Notes under the pieces: model-generated
What the model was told of the DNA's origin: nothing
The model's database searches: none
Seen by the model: the letters and a program-made list of their open reading frames with translations, nothing else
Program-made: the position numbers and the translations under genes
Source: Naegleria gruberi
Lineage: Eukaryota
DNA length: 64,000 bases
Direction: 5' to 3' (one strand)
NCBI GenBank assembly: GCA_000004985.1
Contig: GG738845.1
In this document: piece by piece, positions 3,647 to 25,728 of the stretch
How positions within the stretch are numbered: the first letter of the stretch is position 1
How the letters are laid out: every line of letters begins with the position of its first letter

Positions 3647-6624
3647 TTATAGTTTTCGTTTAATGGTTCCTGGGTTAGATATTTCAATCAAATCTCTAAA
3701 GCAAAGAGCTCGCACCTGAACATTGAATAGAGATTGTAGTTTAGAATCATCCTTCTTTGCTTTTTTCATTTGTGCAAATCTCTCCAACCATTCAGCCACT
3801 TCAATTTCATACCTTACATTCATTTTACATTGTTCCAAGGTGTTTTTTGCCATGTACAAGTCTGGTGTTTCATGTTTTTCTTTTGTATTGTCACATAGGA
3901 ATAGAGTTGGATGGTAAAAGGCTAGATTGTACTCATAGCCTTCCCTCTTTGTGAGAGGTCTGATGAATTGATTGAGAGATTGTCCTTTCATAGGTTGAAT
4001 GAAAAATAATTCATTGAGCACCAACTTTTCGATCCATGGCCTTTTCGAATATTCTTTCGTATTGATGGAAATGAATTCGGTTTGATATATCGTAGAAGGA
4101 CTTGTAAACATGTCCGTAAATAGAGTTTTGAGCTTGCTTTGGACCTTCTTCCATGTTTCTTGAGAGATTTGTTCTGATGTTTCTGCTGTATCGATCTGAG
4201 AGGAGAGAATTGACTTTCTCTTTTGCTTTCTACCTTTGAAAATCGTTTCATCTTTGTATGTAGAGCAACATCCCTCACAATAATACTTGATAATGGTGTT
4301 GACTTCCTCTGGTGTAATGTCAATACATGAAAAGTGATAGTGATTTCTGCATCTTTCACACATAACCATTTCATTGGTTTTCCAAGATCCTCCACATTTA
4401 CAAAAAGTATTCTTCTTTCTTTTAGAGACTGATTTACCGGATTGGTGCTCTTTCAAAGCTTTACAATATTTACAATTAAATGCTCGTTTTTCACTGTAAT
4501 CAGTGGCCTTTTCCCCTACACATTTGCAGTGATACCAAATCTCACAACTCTCACACTGTATCATATCATCTCTTGAGCTATCATATATACCTCTACAGAA
4601 ACAATAATTTGTATCTTGTTGTTCAGTTCTAACACAAGTATTACAGTGGAAGGTTTTGGAAGGTGGGTTGTGAACTCCAACGCATGATTTGTGGAATACA
4701 TTATTGCAAAGATTACACTCAACCTTATCTCTTGGCTTGAGCTCGAGTTGACAAAAACAACTAGTCTTAGATTTGGGAATGAGTTGTTTTGGATCAAATT
4801 CTTCCTCATCGTCAGACATGTACTTAGCTGATTCAGAATTGGATTGGAATTGCTTTGTAAGATAATTCATTGTTTCTAGCGGTAAACTACTACTATCACC
4901 ACTGCTGATTAATTGTTCAGCAGTGGTATCGCTTGTTTGAATAGTTACATCTTTGAAAATGGAAGATAATGTATTATATTCCTCTTCAAATAGACCTTGG
5001 TTGCTTCTTATTTCATCAATTTTGACTTGCCAACAAGCTAAAAAGTCAACAATGTTTTCCTTTGGTATATCACCTCTATTATTGTTGGCATCATAAAGAA
5101 AAATATGATTAACTTACTTTAGTGCTGTAATAATCTTCTTGAACCAAGATTGCTCTTTGAAACTTCTTGGAGAAATAATGGACTGATGGATAATTAGGAC
5201 AAGATCGTCATTCTTCTCTTCACCAATTATTTCCAAGGTTTGTTTAACATTTTGCTCTTTAAAAACCAAGCAACGCAGGGCTATTTCGATCAATTCAACA
5301 ATGAGAGGATGAATGTAAAAGAAAAATCTGAATTGAGTTATACAGGGACTTATATCTTCTTCAGTAACATTGTTTCCACTTTAAACAACAACATTCTTAT
5401 CCAAACATTGATAAGGCTATTAACTTACAATTTCGATTTTACAGAAGGTAATGATTTCAATAGTGGCAATAACTCTTTAGAAAAGAGAATTTGTAAACAT
5501 TTTTCGTCTGGTAATGTGAAAAAAGCTCTAGTAAAAATAGAGAGTGGGCAATAGTGGAAATGTCTAGTATACAAATGCTATTCCATTTCAATAATTTCAG
5601 TAATCACATTGAAACTTACCTTGAGAGAGTTGGAAAAATGTTTGAGGGATGTAAAATCGTTCATTAAAAATTTCAAAACTTCATAGCTAGGTCTTAAATT
5701 AACATTGAAATTTTTCTGAATAAAGAGATCATTGGTACATTTCAAAAATAGTGGCTTTGCTAATGATTGAGTTTTGAACGTTTTGATTTGAAATCTGCTC
5801 AACTGTTGTACAATATTAGTTTGTTCAATTAAAAATAGTTTAACTTACATCAACATTCATCCCTTCCAAAATATCAACTCCCTTCTCATCCACTCTCAAG
5901 ATATTAATGATTGGAAATCTTGAAGAATATGATGAACACAACTCTAACCATTTTCCAATTTGAGGTACATTGTGAGTATTCTCGAAAACAAATACGATTG
6001 CCTTCTTTCCACCAGGTGAAGAATATGTCATTTCTTTAAGGGCGTCGGGTAATCCAAATACTTTGTTTGTATACTTTTGTGCAATTAGTGTCAATAGAGC
6101 TTTTAAGGTTGGAAACATTGTCTCTGATCTGAAAATGCAAACATGAAATCCGTCCAATTTTTGTCCTTTTTTTGGAGCTTCTTCCTCATAATCTTCATAG
6201 TCCTCGTATTCATCATATTCGTCATCATATTCCACATATGAATCTCTAATGAAAAATGATTCCATTAATTTGTCTATTATTTCGAAACAATTAACATTCG
6301 AAATGTGACATTTAACCTACTTGTTGTTGTTTTCAAAATGATTACAGGTGAAATACATTTACTCAAGCCTTTATCAAATCTTTCTGCAATATCCTGTAAC
6401 TCTTCAATAATTAACTCTTCAGTGTGGGTATTTTCTTCAGCACTTGCCTTTCTATTGATAAACTCTTCCACATTATGAATTGATGAATCTATAATTTTCT
6501 GATATTTATCATGTTTTAAAAAGTCCTTTCTTGCCTCCGATAAGTCTTGTTCTTCAAGAATCAACTTCTTCTTGTGTGATCTCCGCCTAGAACGAACAGG
6601 TATTGTCAAAGAGTTGTTTATCAT
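3647..6624 (-). CDS. Multi-exon gene encoding a protein with three C-terminal PHD-type zinc fingers. Proposed exons: 6363..6624, 5849..6273, 5620..5802, 5429..5472 (microexon), 5118..5327, 3647..5075.
   Basis: The 407-aa ORF 3647..4870 has three Cys4-His-Cys3 fingers: CFCQLELKP..CNLCNNVFHKSCV, CFCRGIYD..CESCEIWYHCKCV and CKCGGSWK..CERCRNHYHFSCI. The reading frame continues upstream through exons bounded by repeated GTAAGTT donors, which appear as aacttac at 5111-5117, 5421-5427, 5613-5619 and 5843-5848. Exon frames were checked against ORFs 5578..5802, 5840..6265 and 6277..6624. The N-terminal part contains an acidic tract, EYDDEYDEYEDYEDYEEE. Confidence 0.55.
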
Positions 6625-13504: not shown

Positions 13505-13996
13505 ATGTTTAAAAGAACAATTACTGTACGAAAGTTTATTTCTTCGTCCAGGTTGTTTAACAACTCGTTTCCTAAAACCCAATCCACAAATTACTCAACC
13601 ACACAGAGTAATGCAGATCAAGAAGGCAACACTCAATCAAATATTCATACTGCTGCTGCTGCTTTGGATTATGATGTTAAAGCAGAGAGGAAGCAATTGA
13701 AGAAAGATATGAGAGGCTTGAGTGACAAATATTTTGTTCCTCCACAGGTTGGGGTGGATGATGAGCAATATATCAGGTCCATGGAGACTCTAGAGCAACA
13801 GAGACAAGATGGCTCTACATCTGTAGAAGAATTTGTTTCGCTCACAACAACTACTTTGGAAGTAAAAGAAGTGGAACAAGACCACTCCAAACCACACCAC
13901 AAAAAACGTGGTTTACAACCACAACTTGCCAAAGGGAGCCTTATTAACAACACTAACCAAGATCCATCAAAAGACACTACCATCGATGAAGAATAG
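13505..13996 (+). CDS. Small hypothetical protein of 163 aa. The N-terminus looks like an organellar presequence.
   Basis: ORF starts MFKRTITVRKFISSSRLFNNSFPK and has no recognised domain. It is divergent from the upstream minus-strand gene. Confidence 0.35.
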   Translation: MFKRTITVRKFISSSRLFNNSFPKTQSTNYSTTQSNADQEGNTQSNIHTAAAALDYDVKAERKQLKKDMRGLSDKYFVPPQVGVDDEQYIRSMETLEQQRQDGSTSVEEFVSLTTTTLEVKEVEQDHSKPHHKKRGLQPQLAKGSLINNTNQDPSKDTTIDEE

Positions 13997-14286: not shown

Positions 14287-17200
14287 ATGTATTCCCAACA
14301 ACAATACTATCACGAGCAACAACATCACCAACAAATGATGATGGCTCAGCAACAACAAGCCTATAATCCTCAACAAGTTGTTGTTGTGCAAACTACAACT
14401 ACTACTTACCATCAACAGCCAATGTATCAACAATACAATATGTATGGCCAATATAATACGATGGAACAAAACTATGGTACGATTAATACAAACTATGAAC
14501 AACCAAGATCATTAGATACTTTGCCATTCTTTACAACAACTGAGTCGACTGATAGTCACAGTGACTTTGTTCCTCCTCCATTGTTCAATTTTGATAACTT
14601 GAATGTGGAAGCCCTTATTCAACCAACCTATCTTCCAATTGCAACCACTCAAATCAATAATGAGGTTACAAATACCAATAACGTTATAACCAACAATACT
14701 ACCATTAATAAGACCAATATTGTCAATACTGAAATTACAAATAACACTACAACCATTAATAACAATGTTACAAATCAAACTAATAAGATTAACAATGTTG
14801 CCAACACTAATAAGCAAGTTGTAAAAACAGTGGAAAAGAAGTCTGTCGTTAACAATCAAAATACTACAACAAACACTGTTAACAATCAAGTTATCAATAA
14901 TGTCACAACCAACAATATCTCAAAAACCGTTAATAACTCTGTCACTGTTAACGACACTACAGTTAATATTCAAAAGAATCATAATATCCAAACAGTAGAA
15001 ACTTCTGAAAATAATAAGAAAAATGTTACCACCAATGTTAGCGAAACAACAAAGGCTTCTGTCACAGTCCCAACCGTAGATCAAACTAGTAAGGTCACCA
15101 CTAGTAAGACTGTTGAAAAGAACACTACTATTGTGAATAACAGTGTTCCTGTTACTACCACTACAAGTACTCAAAAAACCGTAACTAGACCTCAATCAGC
15201 AACAAAAACAATTACCAATGCAACTACAAATGTTGTCAATAATCAAACAACAAATGTTGTTAACTCAAATACCACCAATACTGTTGTTAATAATACAGTT
15301 AATGTCACAAACAATACAACAACCACAGAAAACACCAAAACATTAGTCAGAACAAATACACAACCAAAACCAATCAGCCCAAGACCTACAAGTCCTGCAG
15401 GAAAGAAGGTTGTCGAAAACAATTCCACTATTGTTAACAATAATGCATCCAACGTGGTTAATAATACTGTTACCAATACCACTAAGGTTGTTGAAAATAA
15501 CACTGTTATCAATAATAATTCGACCAATGTAAAAACAATTGATACCAATACTCTTCAACCAACCACAACAACTCCAAGAAGACCAGTCAGTCCAAGGTTG
15601 AGTAATACCACTACTGCTACTAACACTGTTAAAGCTGTAAATCAAGTTGTTGAAAATAAGGCTGTAGTTAATAATAATCAGACAACGAATGTTGTTAATA
15701 ACACAACCAACAATGTTGTCAATAACAACACAACCACTAGTACTGAAACCACCAAGACTTTGGTTAGAACAAATACTCAACCAAGACCAATTAGTCCAAG
15801 ACCTCCAAGTCCTTCATGCAATAAGGTTGTTGAAAACACGTGCTCTAACGTTGTTAATAATTCTTCTAATGTTGTAAATAATGTGACCAATACAGTCACC
15901 AATAATACTACAACAAATGTTGTCAAAAACACAAACATTGTCAACAATACCAATGTTGTCAATAATAATACCAGTACAACATCTCAAAATACCAAGACTT
16001 TGGTTAGAACAAATACTCAACCAAAACCTATTAGCCCAAGACCAATTGTGGAAACTAATTGCTCCTCAGTTGTTGAAAATAATTCATGTAAGGTTGTTGA
16101 TAATGATTCAACTAAGGTAGTCAATAATTGCTCAAATGTAGTTAACAATGTCTCAACAACAGTAACCCAAAATGTTGTTACTAATACAGTAACAAACATT
16201 ACTAATACCACAAATACAGTGATTAGTAACACAAAGGTCGTTGAAAATAAGACTGTTATTAACAATGACTGCACAAACGTAAAGACCATTGAAAACAACA
16301 CCAATACTTCAACCCTTCAAGCAACCACCACAACTCCAAGAAGACCTGTCAGTCCAAGAGTCAATAGCTCTGCTAATGTAACAAGGACAGAACAAAACGT
16401 TGTTCAAAACTCTGTGACTAACAATGTTACAAATAATGTCACAAAGAATGTCGAAAATAATACTATTGTAAAGAATGAATCAAATTGTGTTAAAACAGTT
16501 ACTAACAATACAAAGGTTGAAAACAATACACTCCAAAACACCACCACAACTCCAAGAAGACCAGCAAGCCCTTCCCCTCAAACCACCACCAATTCAACTA
16601 GTAACACTGTTACAAAAACTATTGTCAATAACACTACAACAAACAGTAATACTACCATTATTAATAACAATGTTGTCAATAATACCTCTAATCAAACATC
16701 CAACACAACCAAATCCGTCAAACTTGAAAGTACAGTTAACAATAACCAACCAACTTCAATTACAGCAACCAAAACAGTGGAAACCAATACAAGTATTGTT
16801 AATAACAAGGCACCTGTCTCCACAACCACCACAACTCAAACTGCCTCAATTACAAGACCACAAAGTGCCACTAAGACGGTATCAAACACTACAACTGTAA
16901 CCAATAACCAAGAAATTAACAAGACCATTGTGAACAATACCACCAATAACATTATTAATAATACTATTATTGAAAAGAATATTACCAATAATGTTACAAA
17001 CAATGTTGTCAATAACCAGACAGTTAACAAGTCTATTGAACAAAATAATAACTCAACTGTAGAATGTATCAATAACAAGAAATGTAACATTACTAATACA
17101 GTTGAAAAGGTCAATGTTATTAATAATGTTACTTCAAATGTTACAAACAATATTACTCATGTCACTAACACAACCAACACTGTTACCAATAATGTTATTA

Positions 17201-18783
17201 ACAACACTAATGTGATCAACAACTCCACAGTTAATAAGAATGTTAGTGAAACAAACAATTCTTCCAAGTGCATTACAGATGAGACAAACATTTGCAATAA
17301 TAAGGCTATCACCAACCAAACCAACAAGTGCTCCGTTGAAAATAGTGAAAGAAAATGGGTAATTGAAGTTACAATTACCAACTTTAAATCAAACTTTTCT
17401 CACTTGATGGGAGTTTCTCCTCTCTATTCTTCAACTTTACAAACTTTGGAGAAGTATCAAGCCAATCTCATGAAGACTCTTGAATTGGCAACTGGAGATA
17501 ATACTCACAAGTTTATGACTTTGGCCAATCAAATCGATTCTGAATTTGAAAAGAATATAGGTTGGTTGACTAGAACAATTGTCATGCTCGAAAGAGAAAA
17601 GATTGCGTTCAACAACTGGACTGATAACCCTAATATTCCAAAATTTTTGTCTATGAATGTTGAACAACTCATTGAGGAGTGTAGAAAGCTACCTTCTGAT
17701 CCAAAATTTGATTCATCAGTCAAGACTCTTATTGAATACTTCCAAAAGTATGGCAAATTAGTACAATACTTGGTTCTTTTAAGATATTATTATACTAGTA
17801 TCCATAAAAAGTATGACGCCCCAAAGGTTGTCCTTGAAAGAACTACAAGATGTGGAGTTTCAAAGATGTATTCGGACAATGATTTTGACTTTACTGTTGA
17901 TTCCCTCAAGGTCAGTGTTGCCTATTGGTTAAGGCCTTGTCAATTCAGTGATAAGCCAATCTTGGTTGATTCTGCCGCTGGTATTGAAGTAAAGAATATC
18001 AGAAAGGGTCTTATCAACAATGCCTATTTTATCTCTGCACTCTATGCCATTTCATCAAAGAGACCAGAAATTATCAAGAATAGTTTTGTTGAAACTGATT
18101 TTGTTACGGGAAGACATACCATGAAGCTCTACAATTCTAATGGTCACCAAAAGTTTGTTTCAATTGATGATAGCATTCCTATTGAATATTTGGGTAAGCC
18201 TATTGGTGCCATCTCTGGAAATCCAAATGAATTCTGGGTGCAATTGTTAGAAAAATCTTACGCAAAACACTTGGGAGGTTATCATATGTATTGCCATGGT
18301 GGTAGACCCCAAGATGCTCTCCAATCATTGTTTGGAACGAAGATTAGCTTTGAAACCAAGTTAGGAAGTAGTTGCGACGTTTCATCTGTTTGGTCAAGAG
18401 TCGTTTCAGAATTCAACAATGGAAATCTCCTTCTTGTTTCAAATACTAAGGGCTACAATGAAATTACTGAAAATGATTGTCATGCTTATATTGTCCAACA
18501 AGTTGTTGAAGTAGAAGATGATAATAAGGTTGTTCACAAGCTTGTAAAGTTATTCAACCCATGGGGTTTCGCTTACAGCTCAAATGAGCAATTAACTGAG
18601 AAGGCATATGCTTGCATGGAATGGAAAGGTAAATACTCTGACAATGATTCATCATGGAATGAATCACTCTTGAAAAAACTTGATGTTAAGAGTGCTAATG
18701 ATGGCATATTTTGGATGTGTTGTGAAGATTTCTGTCGTCACTGGACTGAGGTAGTATCTGTTACTCTTCCTCGTGCTAAGTAA
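14287..18783 (+). CDS. Calpain-like protein with the catalytic Cys replaced by Ala (likely an inactive pseudoprotease). It is preceded by about 1000 aa of Q-rich and T/N/V-rich repetitive low complexity.
   Basis: Single 1498-aa ORF. The C-terminal calpain core has WLRPCQF, then IRKGLINNAYFISALYAIS where calpains have QGALGDCWLLAA. Other core motifs are EFWVQLLEKSYAKHLGGY, CHAYIV (His kept), LFNPWG (Asn kept) and IFWMCCEDF. The N-terminal region carries tandem protein repeats TKTLVRTNTQP[KR]PISPRP (three copies) and TTTTPRRP[VA]SP (three copies). There is no signal peptide. Confidence 0.8.
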   Translation: MYSQQQYYHEQQHHQQMMMAQQQQAYNPQQVVVVQTTTTTYHQQPMYQQYNMYGQYNTMEQNYGTINTNYEQPRSLDTLPFFTTTESTDSHSDFVPPPLFNFDNLNVEALIQPTYLPIATTQINNEVTNTNNVITNNTTINKTNIVNTEITNNTTTINNNVTNQTNKINNVANTNKQVVKTVEKKSVVNNQNTTTNTVNNQVINNVTTNNISKTVNNSVTVNDTTVNIQKNHNIQTVETSENNKKNVTTNVSETTKASVTVPTVDQTSKVTTSKTVEKNTTIVNNSVPVTTTTSTQKTVTRPQSATKTITNATTNVVNNQTTNVVNSNTTNTVVNNTVNVTNNTTTTENTKTLVRTNTQPKPISPRPTSPAGKKVVENNSTIVNNNASNVVNNTVTNTTKVVENNTVINNNSTNVKTIDTNTLQPTTTTPRRPVSPRLSNTTTATNTVKAVNQVVENKAVVNNNQTTNVVNNTTNNVVNNNTTTSTETTKTLVRTNTQPRPISPRPPSPSCNKVVENTCSNVVNNSSNVVNNVTNTVTNNTTTNVVKNTNIVNNTNVVNNNTSTTSQNTKTLVRTNTQPKPISPRPIVETNCSSVVENNSCKVVDNDSTKVVNNCSNVVNNVSTTVTQNVVTNTVTNITNTTNTVISNTKVVENKTVINNDCTNVKTIENNTNTSTLQATTTTPRRPVSPRVNSSANVTRTEQNVVQNSVTNNVTNNVTKNVENNTIVKNESNCVKTVTNNTKVENNTLQNTTTTPRRPASPSPQTTTNSTSNTVTKTIVNNTTTNSNTTIINNNVVNNTSNQTSNTTKSVKLESTVNNNQPTSITATKTVETNTSIVNNKAPVSTTTTTQTASITRPQSATKTVSNTTTVTNNQEINKTIVNNTTNNIINNTIIEKNITNNVTNNVVNNQTVNKSIEQNNNSTVECINNKKCNITNTVEKVNVINNVTSNVTNNITHVTNTTNTVTNNVINNTNVINNSTVNKNVSETNNSSKCITDETNICNNKAITNQTNKCSVENSERKWVIEVTITNFKSNFSHLMGVSPLYSSTLQTLEKYQANLMKTLELATGDNTHKFMTLANQIDSEFEKNIGWLTRTIVMLEREKIAFNNWTDNPNIPKFLSMNVEQLIEECRKLPSDPKFDSSVKTLIEYFQKYGKLVQYLVLLRYYYTSIHKKYDAPKVVLERTTRCGVSKMYSDNDFDFTVDSLKVSVAYWLRPCQFSDKPILVDSAAGIEVKNIRKGLINNAYFISALYAISSKRPEIIKNSFVETDFVTGRHTMKLYNSNGHQKFVSIDDSIPIEYLGKPIGAISGNPNEFWVQLLEKSYAKHLGGYHMYCHGGRPQDALQSLFGTKISFETKLGSSCDVSSVWSRVVSEFNNGNLLLVSNTKGYNEITENDCHAYIVQQVVEVEDDNKVVHKLVKLFNPWGFAYSSNEQLTEKAYACMEWKGKYSDNDSSWNESLLKKLDVKSANDGIFWMCCEDFCRHWTEVVSVTLPRAK
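15330..16600 (+). repeat. Imperfect tandem coding repeats inside the calpain-like gene
   Basis: The DNA segment accaagactttggttagaacaaatactcaaccaa(a/g)accaattagtccaagacc recurs near 15340, 15751 and 15990. A second family encoding TTTTPRRPVSPR recurs near 15557, 16322 and 16547. Confidence 0.7.
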
Positions 18784-18852: not shown

Positions 18853-19857
18853 TTATTGTTTGTTGGCCTTCTTTGCTTTTGCCAAAAAGTCGTCCTTCAT
18901 CTTGATAGTAAGCATGTATTCATTCTTTTGCTTGAATGGTTTATCTTCTTCAAGGGCTTTCTTTAAATCCATACCAGGGAATTCATTAGCAAGTTTTTCC
19001 TTAGCTTTACCAACAAAGTCTTTTAACATTTGGAAAGCTTGTTCTTCATTTTCAACACGGAAACACAAAATCTTTACCTTTTTTCCTGTCACCAAAAACT
19101 TGATCATTTTCTTCATCTTGACATCCAAATCATGAGTATCAATATTAGCAGAAAATCTAATTTCCTTAGTCTTCTTCTCTTCCAATTCCTTTTCTAAATC
19201 CTTCAACTGGCTCAACTTGTCCTTGATAATTGCATGTTTTAAAAATACAACATAATCACCCAATTTAACAACTGGTGGGCTAACAGAATCTACAACTAGG
19301 ATTAAATCTAATCCTTCATTGAGTGCAATTTCTTCTGCTGATTCTCTATCAATTTTATCGGCAATCATTGTACCATCACTGACACGAATAAGTCTATAGT
19401 GTGTAAATTCTTCTGGAATTTCATAATTTACAGGTTTAGTAATTTGGTCAATTCCGAGTTCCTCTTCCTTGGCTACAAGAATGGTCTTGCTTGTTCGGAG
19501 AGCCTTTTCTTTTTTAGAAGATGTTGTTCTAGCTTTGAAATAATTGGACCATTTAATATCAAGTTCTTGAGCAACACGATCCAAGTAAGCTGCCTCATCT
19601 TCTCCTTCATTGGCACTCTTAGGAACAGCAGTAGTATGATACATCATTTGTTGACCAGTACTTGTTGTTGTATTCATAAATAATGCATTATTATTAACAA
19701 ATTGTTTAGTATTCAAAGATAGTTGTTGATGTACAATATTCAAAAATCTATTATTATTATTATTGTTAATAATAATAGGAAGGATGGAATTTACACTAGG
19801 AGAGGAAGCGGATTTGAAAATTCCTCTGATATTATTTACAAGGCTTAACCTTTTCAT
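18853..19857 (-). CDS. Translation initiation factor IF-3 homolog, organellar and most likely mitochondrial
   Basis: The IF3 N-domain is RLIRVSDGTMIADKIDRESAEEIALNEGLDLILVVDSVSPPVVKLGDY. The C-domain is KEIRFSANIDTHDLDVKMKKMIKFLVTGKKVKILCFRVENEE. A long N/S-rich presequence begins MKRLSLVNNIRGIF. Confidence 0.75.
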   Translation of the reverse strand: MKRLSLVNNIRGIFKSASSPSVNSILPIIINNNNNNRFLNIVHQQLSLNTKQFVNNNALFMNTTTSTGQQMMYHTTAVPKSANEGEDEAAYLDRVAQELDIKWSNYFKARTTSSKKEKALRTSKTILVAKEEELGIDQITKPVNYEIPEEFTHYRLIRVSDGTMIADKIDRESAEEIALNEGLDLILVVDSVSPPVVKLGDYVVFLKHAIIKDKLSQLKDLEKELEEKKTKEIRFSANIDTHDLDVKMKKMIKFLVTGKKVKILCFRVENEEQAFQMLKDFVGKAKEKLANEFPGMDLKKALEEDKPFKQKNEYMLTIKMKDDFLAKAKKANKQ

Positions 19858-20059: not shown

Positions 20060-20932
20060 TTATTGTTTGAGACCCAATCTTCTAGAAGCGAACAATGGAA
20101 GAACAAAGCTTGAAGCATGGAGACCTGGGTTATAGTATTGGAGGGTATCCTTAGCAGATTCGAACCATTCAGTTCTCTTAGCAACCTTGACGTCATTGGA
20201 TTCATCCTTAGAACAAATGAAGAAACCAATAGCACCAGATGGATAAGTTGGAATGGAAATAGTAGAGTAGGAGACATTTGGGAAAATATCAACAATGAAA
20301 TCCTTCATACCAGCAATAATGTCCAAGTGCAACCACATGGATTCAGCTTGAGTACACAAAATACCATTTTCGTTCAAAGCTTCCTTGCAGGACTTGTAGA
20401 ATTCAGGTCCGAACAATGATGAAGCAGGACCAACTGGATCAGAAGAGTCAACAATGACAACATCAAAGCAATTCTTGTGTTCCTTCAAGAAGACAGCACC
20501 ATCATAAATGTGGAGCTTGAGCTTTGGACTTTCGAAAGACATATTCATGTGTGGGAGGAACTTCTTGGAAGCATTAACGACACCTTCATCAATTTCACAC
20601 AAGTGGACTTCTTCAACAGATGGATGCTTCAAAATTTCTCTAACGACACCACCGTCACCACCACCAATAACACAAACCTTCTTTGGGTCAGTCTTGAGAG
20701 CAGCCAATGGGATGTGAGCCATCATTTCTTGATAAGCACATTCATCTCTTTCAGTTTGTTGGATGACACCATCCAAAACCAAAACTCTTCCGTAATTTTC
20801 AGAGTCAAAGACCAAAATATCTTGGAACTTGGACTTTTCTTCGTGCAAAACTTGCTTGACCTTCAAGCTGAAACATTCTCCTGGCCACATAGTGGAGAGT
20901 TCTGAGAACCAACCTTCCTTTAAAGCGTTCAT
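20060..20932 (-). CDS. Spermidine synthase
   Basis: Starts at the ATG for MNALKEGWF inside ORF 20060..21166. The full aminopropyltransferase signature is present: VLVLDGVIQQTERDECAYQEMMAHIPL, KVCVIGGGDGGVVREI, VVIVDSSDPVGPASSLF and YPSGAIGFF. Confidence 0.9.
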   Translation of the reverse strand: MNALKEGWFSELSTMWPGECFSLKVKQVLHEEKSKFQDILVFDSENYGRVLVLDGVIQQTERDECAYQEMMAHIPLAALKTDPKKVCVIGGGDGGVVREILKHPSVEEVHLCEIDEGVVNASKKFLPHMNMSFESPKLKLHIYDGAVFLKEHKNCFDVVIVDSSDPVGPASSLFGPEFYKSCKEALNENGILCTQAESMWLHLDIIAGMKDFIVDIFPNVSYSTISIPTYPSGAIGFFICSKDESNDVKVAKRTEWFESAKDTLQYYNPGLHASSFVLPLFASRRLGLKQ

Positions 20933-21236
20933 ATTGTTTTGTTGTTGTTGTTTGGGTGTTGTGTTAATATTTTTTTTGAACAGCAAATATTTTGAATAGG
21001 TTTTAACGGGTTGTTTTGCGTTGTTGTTGCGGTGCCAACTTCTGCTTGGTTGATGTTTGTGATGGTCCAACAAAAGGATTCTTGTTGAGGCACAAAGATG
21101 TTTCTTCATGAAAAGATAGAGAGATCTCCAACACAGGTGGTGACTTGCTTTTTTAATTATGTGCAATAGAGGTTGGTTTGTTTACAAAAAGAATGCATTG
21201 TAAAGTTTTCTTATGAGAAAAAACTGGATTTAAAAT

Positions 21237-24699: not shown

Positions 24700-25728
24700 A
24701 TGAGTCACAAATATCAAAAGGATTTCTCTCTGCCCAATAACTTTCAAGAGACTTTACGGGACTTTACTAGAGAGGTTTTAAGATCTCAACCTGGTAACAT
24801 TTATCGATTTGGATATGATTATTTTATGAAGCTGGCTAAGGAAATGGGAGAAAGTACACCTGTGGTTACTGCTGGAAACAATGCCTCCAAAGTTAATGAG
24901 GAGGAACCAGAACAAGAATACAAGGTTGTACATACAAATAATAATGATTTACATACTTTGGATGAATCTCTGAACGCTAGTAGTATTAAACCAAACGAAG
25001 ACGACTACCAAAATATTTCCAGCATTTCCATACAAGATAAACCTGTGAGCATTAAATCTCAAGACAAATTCGAAGACAATGATGTCGAAGAGGAGGGTGT
25101 AGATGAAGATCCAGAAGGTGGTGCAAATTCTGCTTTTGAAGGAGACATGCTCCAAGCTATTGTACAAATTTCAGACCAAGAGCTTTTAAATATTATCTAT
25201 AATCAATTAAGCTCGTTCGGATATGAAAATCTTCCTATGGATGTCATTAAGGATGAAATCAAAAAAGTTTTCAACTATCAACTCCCTGAAGCAATCATGC
25301 TCTTTGTTATGGCAGAATCAGAAATTTCAGAGGATGGTACAATTGAAATTGGTCAATTCTCTCAACAAGTGACAAATGTTTTGAAAACAATTGTGGGAGT
25401 AGAGTCGTTTATGGAAGAAATTAATGTCAATGAGGCCGATGTTGTTCATGGACTCAACAAGATGGAACTGGATGAAGAATTGAAGGCCATTTTCGAAAGA
25501 GCTGACGAAGGCCAAACAGGTGCCATTTCATTCGCCAAGTTCAGAAGAGAATTGTTGGAAGCAGACTTGGACCTTTCTAGAAGAGAGGTGAATATTGTTC
25601 TCTCTGAGGCTGAGTCAGATGAGCATGGTCAAGTTCTGTATGAGAAGAGTATTAATAGTGCTCACAGACTTTTATTCATTGCAAATATGTTTGATGATTT
25701 TTGTAATGAAAATGATTTACATTTCTAA
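24700..25728 (+). CDS. Protein with an RIIa (PKA-RII/Dpy-30-like dimerisation-docking) domain and a C-terminal EF-hand-like region, resembling flagellar radial-spoke or AKAP-binding proteins
   Basis: The N-terminus PNNFQETLRDFTREVLRSQPGNIYRFGYDYFMKLAKE fits the RIIa consensus. The C-terminal ADEGQTGAISFAKF looks like a degenerate EF loop. An E2F-like motif lies 30 bp upstream of the ATG. Confidence 0.55.
   Translation: MSHKYQKDFSLPNNFQETLRDFTREVLRSQPGNIYRFGYDYFMKLAKEMGESTPVVTAGNNASKVNEEEPEQEYKVVHTNNNDLHTLDESLNASSIKPNEDDYQNISSISIQDKPVSIKSQDKFEDNDVEEEGVDEDPEGGANSAFEGDMLQAIVQISDQELLNIIYNQLSSFGYENLPMDVIKDEIKKVFNYQLPEAIMLFVMAESEISEDGTIEIGQFSQQVTNVLKTIVGVESFMEEINVNEADVVHGLNKMELDEELKAIFERADEGQTGAISFAKFRRELLEADLDLSRREVNIVLSEAESDEHGQVLYEKSINSAHRLLFIANMFDDFCNENDLHF

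Follow-up and report, generated by a model that had tools for sequence, protein, structure and literature searches.

Several calpains without catalytic activity have been described as structural proteins (PMC3563603, PMC4631099, PMC3214072, PMC7912814). The calpain-like proteins of kinetoplastids are reported to have structural roles at the flagellum attachment zone and in the subpellicular cytoskeleton (PMC3214072, PMC7912814), and CAPN6, in which the nucleophilic Cys is replaced by Lys, is a non-proteolytic microtubule stabiliser (PMC3563603, PMC4631099). According to published surveys, over half of the protist calpain variants lack catalytic residues. Here, we describe a gene of Naegleria gruberi (positions 14287-18783, plus strand) located in a 64,000-nucleotide stretch of contig GG738845.1 (assembly GCA_000004985.1), hereafter called the window. 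The predicted protein of 1498 amino acids (aa) combines a Q/Y/M-rich N-terminal head, a very long low-complexity region (LCR), a helical region and a C-terminal calpain protease core whose nucleophile position is occupied by Ala. Our analyses suggest that this pseudo-calpain is probably a Naegleria-specific, catalytically dead calpain paralogue that acts by binding and uses its long N-terminal arm as a spacer or scaffold.

Calpain core and active site

The C-terminal part of the protein matches the Pfam profile PF00648 (Peptidase_C2) over nearly its whole length (aa 1196-1489; E-value 1.7e-37, 129.5 bits with the cutoff at 23.8, covering positions 2-293 of the 297 in the profile), and the protein ends only nine residues past this core. 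A phmmer search against PDB sequences retrieved the cores of calpain-5 and calpain-1 (E-value ~4e-14), and the top Foldseek matches of an AlphaFold2 (AF2) model of aa 1021-1498 were the cores of calpain-3, calpain-9 and calpain-1 (E-value ~1e-13, template modelling score ~0.7). PF00648 was the only Pfam match at E ≤ 1; a C2-like domain III, a penta-EF-hand domain and DUF1935 were not detected in this search, and N-terminal MIT domain(s) of the calpain-7/PalB type were not found. A first-pass annotation, made from the DNA sequence without database searches, had assigned the last ~450 aa to the calpain core. The core is indeed present but comprises only ~300 aa, the preceding ~175 aa (1021-1195) forming a helical region specific to the family.

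In the phmmer alignment, the segment GLINNAYFISA faces GALGDCWLLAA in calpain-1 and GQVGNCWFVAA in calpain-5, HAY faces HAY and NPWG faces NPWG. The nucleophile position, aligned with Cys115 of calpain-1 and with the catalytic Cys of calpain-5, corresponds to Ala1246, encoded by a GCC codon that is two base changes away from TGY. The catalytic residues His1399 and Asn1424 are retained, together with Trp1426. The oxyanion-hole Gln, located six residues ahead of the Cys position, is replaced by Lys1240. The Cys residues closest to the nucleophile site are Cys1218, in an 'RPC' motif also found in Cys-bearing relatives, and Cys1336, and a register shift therefore cannot restore a Cys nucleophile. 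These alignments agree with the first-pass proposal of a calpain-like pseudoprotease with a Cys to Ala replacement and conserved catalytic His and Asn, to which they add the loss of the Gln, and they correct the His motif, which reads CHAY and not GHAY. We consider that the identification of the protein as a calpain-like pseudoprotease is well supported at the sequence level.

We built an alignment of 178 calpain domains, drawn from the 150 top representatives retrieved by an exhaustive HMMER search. Cys occupies the nucleophile column in 146 domains, Ser in six, Ala in five, Gly in three and Arg in one. Of the 159 domains aligned at the oxyanion position, 151 have Gln and only four have Lys, these being the members of the pseudo-calpain family described below. 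We then screened for positions that are conserved in at least 60% of the 173 remaining calpain domains (the Cys itself being kept in ~93% of them) and different in the pseudo-calpain clade. Four such changes, for which the ancestral residue is kept in the closest paralogue, are all located inside ten residues (aa 1237-1246): Asp to Asn or Arg at position 1237, Gln to Lys at position 1240, Gly to Asn at position 1244 and Cys to Ala or Ser at position 1246. As read from these alignments, the entrance of the active site is remodelled, rather than modified by a single point substitution. The Asp lost at position 1237 corresponds in the phmmer alignment to the Ca-site-1 ligand Asp106 of mu-calpain, replaced by Asn1237 in the N. 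gruberi protein and by Arg in its orthologues. From the same alignment reading, the equivalents of the Ca2+ ligands Glu185, Glu302, Asp309 and Asp331 (mu-calpain numbering) are kept, and that of Glu333 is an Ile, as in Cys-bearing relatives.

Orthologues, paralogue and the age of the duplication

The exhaustive search detected four close relatives with scores of 753 to 367 bits, followed by a sharp fall to generic calpains at 148 bits or less. The orthologue from Naegleria lovaniensis (P0005; C9374_009236, XP_044544587.1, 1017 aa) exhibits 63-66% identity over the C-terminal module, presents the same head-LCR-helical-core order and reads GFINNAYFISA at the active site. A protein of 808 aa from an ENA metagenome (P0002; 68-70% identity) reads GLINNAYFISA. 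Its C-terminal end is spurious: the contig (L001, 1.5x coverage) contains one frameshift near position 3647, after which the core goes on in the +1 frame up to the contig end. An N-terminally truncated fragment from a JGI metagenome (P0001; 56% identity) reads GFINTSYFISA, with a Ser encoded by TCG at the nucleophile position. The fourth relative is another N. gruberi protein (P0006; NAEGRDRAFT_69449, XP_002675459.1, D2VKM8) of 485 aa and 39-40% identity, which reads IRQSSIGTCYFLAA with a Cys; it lacks the 1020-aa N-terminal extension and its Asp, Gln, Gly, Cys, His and Asn are intact. An insert between NPWG and EWKG is present in the pseudo-calpain, P0006 and P0005. Scanning metagenome DNA for more members of the family only recovered generic calpains with at most 31% identity. 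Both Naegleria relatives are uncharacterised: the paralogue is named 'predicted protein' and the orthologue 'hypothetical protein', the latter being labelled 'Calpain catalytic domain-containing protein' in UniProt.

The sharing of the substitution by orthologues, a check suggested in the first-pass annotation, could be confirmed: the signature of four changes is common to the N. lovaniensis orthologue and to the two metagenomic relatives (nucleophile Ala, Ala and Ser, respectively). In a neighbour-joining tree based on 271 columns, the pseudo-calpain groups with the N. lovaniensis protein and P0001 (bootstrap 1.0), with P0006 as their sister (0.995). If P0006 were the orthologue in N. gruberi, the loss of Cys would be lineage-specific. 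We rejected this possibility, since the window itself belongs to N. gruberi and P0006 is encoded on a different scaffold; P0006 is thus a paralogue. Because the signature is present in both species, with an intact paralogue in the same genome and the tree described above, the conclusion that the gene was duplicated and lost its catalytic residues before N. gruberi and N. lovaniensis split is well supported by the sequence data. Three members use GCC as the codon at the nucleophile position and the basal member P0001 uses TCG; the likely path leads from Cys (TGY) via Ser (TCN) to Ala (GCC).

The protein could in principle still be a protease with another nucleophile, either Cys1398, beside His1399, or the Ser present at the canonical site in P0001. 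The strict conservation of His1399, Asn1424 and Trp1426 would fit such an activity. Furthermore, Cys1398 ('DCHAY') is present in the pseudo-calpain, P0005 and P0001, i.e., in every member of the clade with sequence at this position, and is absent from the Cys-bearing relatives P0006, P0007 and P0010 (EYHAY, HLHAY and KMHAY), and changes in the triad are not always inactivating (PMC7912814). On the other hand, Lys replaces the oxyanion Gln in all four members of the family, the adjoining Gly and Asp are changed, and the Ala found in three of these four members is incapable of acting as a nucleophile. In papain-fold enzymes, the residue ahead of the catalytic His provides backbone contacts and not the nucleophile, which also counts against Cys1398, and we know of no precedent for a nucleophile at this position. 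A relocated nucleophile is thus very unlikely, and we favour a catalytically dead calpain.

Gene model, coding status and selection

The gene corresponds to a single unbroken open reading frame (ORF) of 1498 codons terminated by TAA. The first-pass annotation had left room for the low-complexity region being an unspliced intron. This can be ruled out on the sequence evidence: the 890-aa N/T/V-rich region is coding, since it consists of 890 stop-free in-frame codons in DNA of 33% GC, with a chance of ~(1-0.075)^890, or ~1e-30 (computed from base composition), since the conserved head is located upstream of it and since the N. lovaniensis gene, annotated as a single exon, encodes the same order of regions. 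The metagenomic protein P0002, from a third lineage, also has the head-LCR-helical-core layout.

We estimated selection by comparing the gene with its N. lovaniensis orthologue segment by segment. The proportion of synonymous differences (pS) is 0.70-0.80, hence saturated, in all segments. The proportion of non-synonymous differences (pN) is 0.17 in the helical region (76% aa identity), 0.27 in the calpain core (60% aa identity), 0.35 in the head (for a saturated pS of 0.70) and 0.43 in the LCR. That the dead enzyme is maintained by purifying selection, strong in the folded part, and is not decaying is thereby well supported by sequence comparison.

One observation would be compatible with the arm being an unspliced intron or a mis-joined sequence, or with the gene being a pseudogene drifting after the loss of catalysis: neither the exact 1498-aa product nor any of ten versions beginning at internal Met starts is present in a collection of 15 billion proteins. 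The same collection does include the flanking N. gruberi proteins. Opposed to this are the negligible chance of such a long open frame, the single-exon orthologue with the same order and a conserved head upstream of the LCR, the shared layout of P0002 and a pN far under the saturated pS in every segment, which make an artefact or a decaying gene extremely improbable. In the public annotation of N. gruberi, the pseudo-calpain gene may be missing or may have been given spurious introns.

A strong local strand asymmetry, unlike most of the window, is observed between 14001 and 18000, over the pseudo-calpain ORF (GC skew of -0.19 to -0.28, AT skew of +0.20 to +0.22); it is explained by the AAY, ACN and GTN codons that dominate the N/T/V tract. 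Five minus-strand ORFs of 101-145 aa are present inside the LCR (14512-17150). They are compositional artefacts and not genes, since the reverse complements of AAY, ACN and GTN seldom yield stop codons.

N-terminal head, low-complexity arm and helical region

The head (Table 1) is conserved between the pseudo-calpain, its N. lovaniensis orthologue and P0002 (51-52% identity, 71% mean column identity), with several blocks that are invariant in these three full-length members and an invariant segment VVVVQTTTTTY. When inspected by eye, the motif LFNFD resembles a clathrin-box (L-phi-x-phi-[DE]). The head begins with a Q-rich sequence (Q, 21% of the first 100 aa) and without a signal peptide, as already noted in the first-pass annotation: the mean Kyte-Doolittle (KD) hydropathy of the first 30 aa is -1.95 and the maximum over 19 aa is 0.73, which indicates neither a signal peptide nor a transmembrane segment. 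The protein should therefore be cytosolic or nuclear, as judged from its sequence.

The helical region is modelled with good confidence as ~7 helices (predicted local distance difference test, pLDDT, of 80) and has no Pfam match. We can only guess that it serves for dimerisation or partner binding.

Table 1. Features of the pseudo-calpain gene and of its product, with coordinates in the window.
Feature	Residues (aa)	Coordinates	Strand	Basis or remark
Coding sequence (CDS), complete, single exon	1-1498	14287..18783	+	open frame, 1498 aa + TAA
Q/Y/M-rich N-terminal head	1-125	14287..14661	+	three-way alignment
Invariant head block QVVVVQTTTTTYHQQP		14377..14421	+	invariant in three full-length members
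Invariant head block SLDxLPFF		14509..14532	+	invariant in three full-length members
Invariant head block LFNFDNLxVxAL (coordinates of LFNFDNL)		14581..14601	+	invariant in three full-length members
LFNFD motif	99-103	14581..14595	+	resembles a clathrin-box, by eye
N/T/V-rich LCR	131-1020	14677..17346	+	composition, repeat scan
Module A copy 1, core RPQSATKT (wider block aa ~272-312, SKTVEKNTTIVNNSVPVTTTTSTQKTVTRPQSATKT)	301-308	15187..15210	+	best-scoring LCR segment against orthologue LCRs
Module B copy 1, TKTLVRTNTQPKPISPRP, then TSP	350-367	15334..15387	+	repeat family D3
Module C copy 1, TTTTPRRPVSP (TPRR + PxSP)	426-436	15562..15594	+	repeat family D4
Module B copy 2, TKTLVRTNTQPRPISPRP, then PSP	489-506	15751..15804	+
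Module B copy 3, TKTLVRTNTQPKPISPRP	569-586	15991..16044	+
Module C copy 2, TTTTPRRPVSP	680-690	16324..16356	+
Module C copy 3, TTTTPRRPASP	752-762	16540..16572	+
Module A copy 2, core RPQSATKT	857-864	16855..16878	+
All-helical family-specific region	1021-1195	17347..17871	+	most conserved part; shared with P0006
Calpain protease core (CysPc / Peptidase_C2)	1196-1489	17872..18753	+	Pfam, PDB phmmer, Foldseek
Remodelled active-site segment N1237-IR-K1240-GLI-N1244-N1245-A1246	1237-1246	17995..18024	+	alignments, codon readout
Cys1398-His1399, catalytic His	1398-1399	18478..18483	+	PDB and family alignments
Asn1424-Pro-Trp1426, catalytic Asn and conserved Trp	1424-1426	18556..18564	+	PDB and family alignments

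The LCR contains 219 N, 211 T and 134 V among its 890 residues (25%, 24% and 15%, respectively; 564 in total), with 3.5% Q, a single Gly and no Met. Its richest 100-aa stretch includes 74 N, T or V residues, a number that does not exceed 38 in any of the other 25 long ORFs of the window. The LCRs of the orthologues have a similar composition and are less than half as long, neither length nor sequence being conserved. At the DNA level, Tandem Repeats Finder (TRF) only detected short slippage-type arrays with units of 12-24 nucleotides, e.g., (AATGTCACAAAT)n. There are 96 NxS/T sequons for 65.6 expected from composition (z 5.2). The extreme N/T/V richness reported by the first-pass annotation is thus borne out, as is the large number of NxT tripeptides, although the latter are mostly a by-product of composition. 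We also considered a reading of these sites in terms of N-glycosylation and rejected it, the protein having no signal peptide or transmembrane segment and the sequon count being largely compositional.

Eight islands rich in Pro and Arg are embedded in the LCR, in the order A(301)-B(350)-C(426)-B(489)-B(569)-C(680)-C(752)-A(857), where the numbers are aa positions; they contain 27 of its 32 Pro and 16 of its 18 Arg. Modules B and C had previously been described as tandem repeats. Their copy number, three each, is correct, but the copies are dispersed, 72-254 aa apart, and the motif TTTTPRRPVSP has two exact copies rather than three, the third reading PASP. The 18-aa copies of module B differ from each other by three to eight synonymous and zero or one non-synonymous codons, with flanks that diverge freely, and six of the eight codons differ, all synonymously, between the two RPQSATKT cores of module A. 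Judging from these codon differences, the motif copies are old and selection maintains their peptide sequence. A recognisable counterpart in the orthologues exists only for module A (SKTVE.NT..NN..PV.TTT.T), with scores of 104-117 compared to a 99th percentile of 93 and a maximum of 104 in the shuffled null.

The islands are enriched in Px[ST]P (8 observed versus 0.4 expected) and PxxP (12 versus 1.2), and TPRR is present three times, once per C module; eight of the 12 [ST]P sites occur in the PxSP context. These motifs resemble kinase consensus sites, PxSP being of the mitogen-activated protein kinase (MAPK) type and [ST]Px[KR] of the cyclin-dependent kinase (CDK) type, a resemblance of sequence only. 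The proposal that the SP and TP-R motifs are similar to CDK or MAPK sites therefore holds at the sequence level. Inspection by eye of the islands for canonical SH3 class I and II motifs was negative, since the spacing between Arg and PxxP fits neither class.

Alternatively, in line with the prion-like protein suggested by the first-pass annotation, the LCR could be the functional centre of the protein, i.e., an N-rich, beta-branched (V/T/I) self-associating domain driving amyloid-like or condensate assembly, with the dead core as cargo. The extreme composition is specific for this gene (up to 74% N+T+V per 100 aa compared to no more than 38% in neighbouring ORFs) and is conserved in orthologues despite sequence turnover, and the Q/Y/M-rich head with its invariant VVVVQTTTTTY would also fit. 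Nevertheless, the LCR of one species can be more than twice as long as that of another and its pN is 0.43, which would also fit a loose spacer growing by slippage of 12-24 nucleotide repeats; the helical region and core are the most conserved parts, and not the LCR; and no strong beta-type periodicity is observed (V/I/L autocorrelation of -0.23 at lag 2). We therefore regard an assembly domain as unlikely and favour a spacer or scaffold arm attached to a dead calpain core.

Probable history and possible function of the pseudo-calpain

The data support well a history in which an ancestral gene, encoding a helical region joined to a CysPc core, underwent duplication prior to the divergence of N. 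gruberi and N. lovaniensis, with XP_002675459.1 still representing the ancestral form. One copy lost the thiol nucleophile, the oxyanion Gln (now Lys), the adjoining Gly and a Ca-site Asp. This dead copy also acquired the N-terminal extension of ~1000 aa, in which the conserved Q/Y-rich head precedes an N/T/V arm that evolves fast. The protein would not cleave its partners; the calpain cleft, with its His, Asn and Trp kept, and the conserved helical bundle could serve as binding surfaces. In the cytosol, the arm could be a long flexible spacer or scaffold that displays short linear motifs, namely the PxSP/TPRR islands (candidate sites for proline-directed phosphorylation or docking) and the motifs of the head. 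The scaffold function, also suggested by the first-pass annotation, and the regulation by phosphorylation are what we infer from these sequence features. By analogy with CAPN6 and with the calpain-like proteins of kinetoplastids, a structural or regulatory role appears the likeliest, the protein being associated with the cytoskeleton or modulating the targets of the active paralogue.

Several observations weigh against this interpretation. The AF2 model of aa 1021-1498 has only a moderate confidence (pLDDT of 65), and the integrity of the cleft is therefore inferred from sequence. Substitutions in the triad, as mentioned above, do not always abolish activity (PMC7912814). The LCR shows no enrichment of simple [ST]P dipeptides relative to its composition (12 observed versus 9.9 expected). 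Neither module B nor module C occurs in the orthologues from N. lovaniensis and from metagenomes; they are lineage-specific additions that do not define the family and are therefore not essential to its core function. Finally, the predicted product is missing from the large protein collection discussed above.

A more specific scenario would be a regulator resembling cFLIP, pairing with or competing against the active-looking NAEGRDRAFT_69449 via the helical bundle and/or the non-cleaving cleft; proline-directed phosphorylation at the PxSP/TPRR islands would adjust its availability. This scenario is unlikely; if true, it would correspond to a calpastatin-independent control of calpain activity in a protist. 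We retain the broader interpretation of a dead calpain paralogue acting by binding. Naegleria is a model for the cytoskeletal remodelling that accompanies the transition from amoeba to flagellate, and the genus includes the pathogen Naegleria fowleri; a conserved, genus-specific scaffold with a calpain fold could give a handle on the cytoskeletal or signalling biology of these organisms.

Genomic neighbourhood

The product of the ORF located just upstream of the pseudo-calpain gene (13505-13993) is the same, residue for residue, as N. gruberi XP_002683208.1 (NAEGRDRAFT_45161), encoded on a 1.56-Mb scaffold. With the spermidine synthase gene described below, this match identifies the window as nuclear DNA of N. 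gruberi. A dictyostelid origin, suggested at first sight by the AT-richness and the N-rich tracts, was rejected in view of these neighbours and because Dictyostelium Cpl has no significant CysPc match (PMC3563603). Downstream, an ORF of 334 aa on the minus strand (18853-19857) contains IF3_N and IF3_C domains preceded by an N-rich N-terminal extension and probably encodes an organellar translation initiation factor 3; it is convergent with the 3' end of the pseudo-calpain gene, the two stop codons being 69 nucleotides apart. A spermidine synthase gene follows (20060-21166, minus strand), whose product is 100% identical to an N. gruberi protein, 79% to a protein of N. lovaniensis and 64% to one of Willaertia. 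The ORF has 368 codons from a TTG start, versus 290 aa for the annotated N. gruberi protein, the 100% identity covering 79% of the ORF, and translation presumably begins at an ATG inside the ORF. Both N. gruberi and N. lovaniensis also possess another spermidine synthase paralogue, which is more distant (54-56% identity).

The nearby ORFs encode ordinary eukaryotic domains (RNB, PHD, ankyrin, SAGA-Tad1, IF3 and RIIa/EF-hand). One of them (24700-25728, plus strand, 342 aa) combines a RIIa dimerisation/docking domain with a weak match to an EF-hand pair, a combination typical of flagellar proteins in other organisms, and may bear on the flagellate stage of Naegleria.

When window positions 1-34000 were compared with the N. 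lovaniensis contig PYSW02000038.1, no shared gene order was found, and only the pseudo-calpain itself matches within +/-10 kb. The neighbours in N. lovaniensis (Fe-hydrogenase-like protein, ABC transporter, 2OG-Fe(II) oxygenase, NHL protein and kinase) have no counterparts in the window.

Comparison with known systems

Parallels are found in kinetoplastids. H49/calpain of Trypanosoma cruzi, CAP5.5 of Trypanosoma brucei and their relatives are, like the Naegleria protein, proteins of Discoba that join a CysPc domain with an incomplete triad to an extensive repeat region. However, the kinetoplastid repeats are regular tandem units of 68 aa, whereas the N. gruberi protein has an N/T/V tract with dispersed motifs, and the kinetoplastid proteins carry DUF1935 and/or domain III, neither of which was detected here by Pfam. 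This is an analogy only, with no specific sequence relation beyond the CysPc fold.

CAPN6 (calpamodulin), androglobin, Caenorhabditis elegans clp-3 and Drosophila calpain C have also kept the calpain core with a replaced nucleophile. These animal non-peptidase C2 homologues correspond to independent losses in unrelated subfamilies, and several of them also lack the His, whereas the Naegleria protein keeps both His and Asn. In addition, they harbour C2L/C2 or globin domains and, unlike the Naegleria protein, no low-complexity arm. Calpain-7 and PalB (MIT-CysPc) resemble it in being non-classical calpains whose core is preceded by a helical region and in lacking a penta-EF-hand domain. Dictyostelium Cpl (Huang et al., 2003, cited in PMC3563603) is likewise a 'calpain-like' protein from an amoeboid protist, but it is unrelated to the pseudo-calpain beyond this label: according to PMC3563603, Cpl has no significant CysPc match, whereas the N. 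gruberi protein matches PF00648 at 129.5 bits.

Pseudo-calpains, including some with repeat arms, are already well documented, and the present data leave the general knowledge of calpains unchanged. What is new is the recognition, in Naegleria, of a conserved clade of pseudo-calpains defined by a K/N/A signature, with an active-looking sister paralogue, a Ser intermediate and a head-LCR-helical-core architecture. The gene provides a clean and datable case of the transition from protease to pseudoenzyme: the same genome contains an active-looking and a dead copy, a basal relative has kept a Ser intermediate, and the four changes clustered in the active site were followed by long-term purifying selection.

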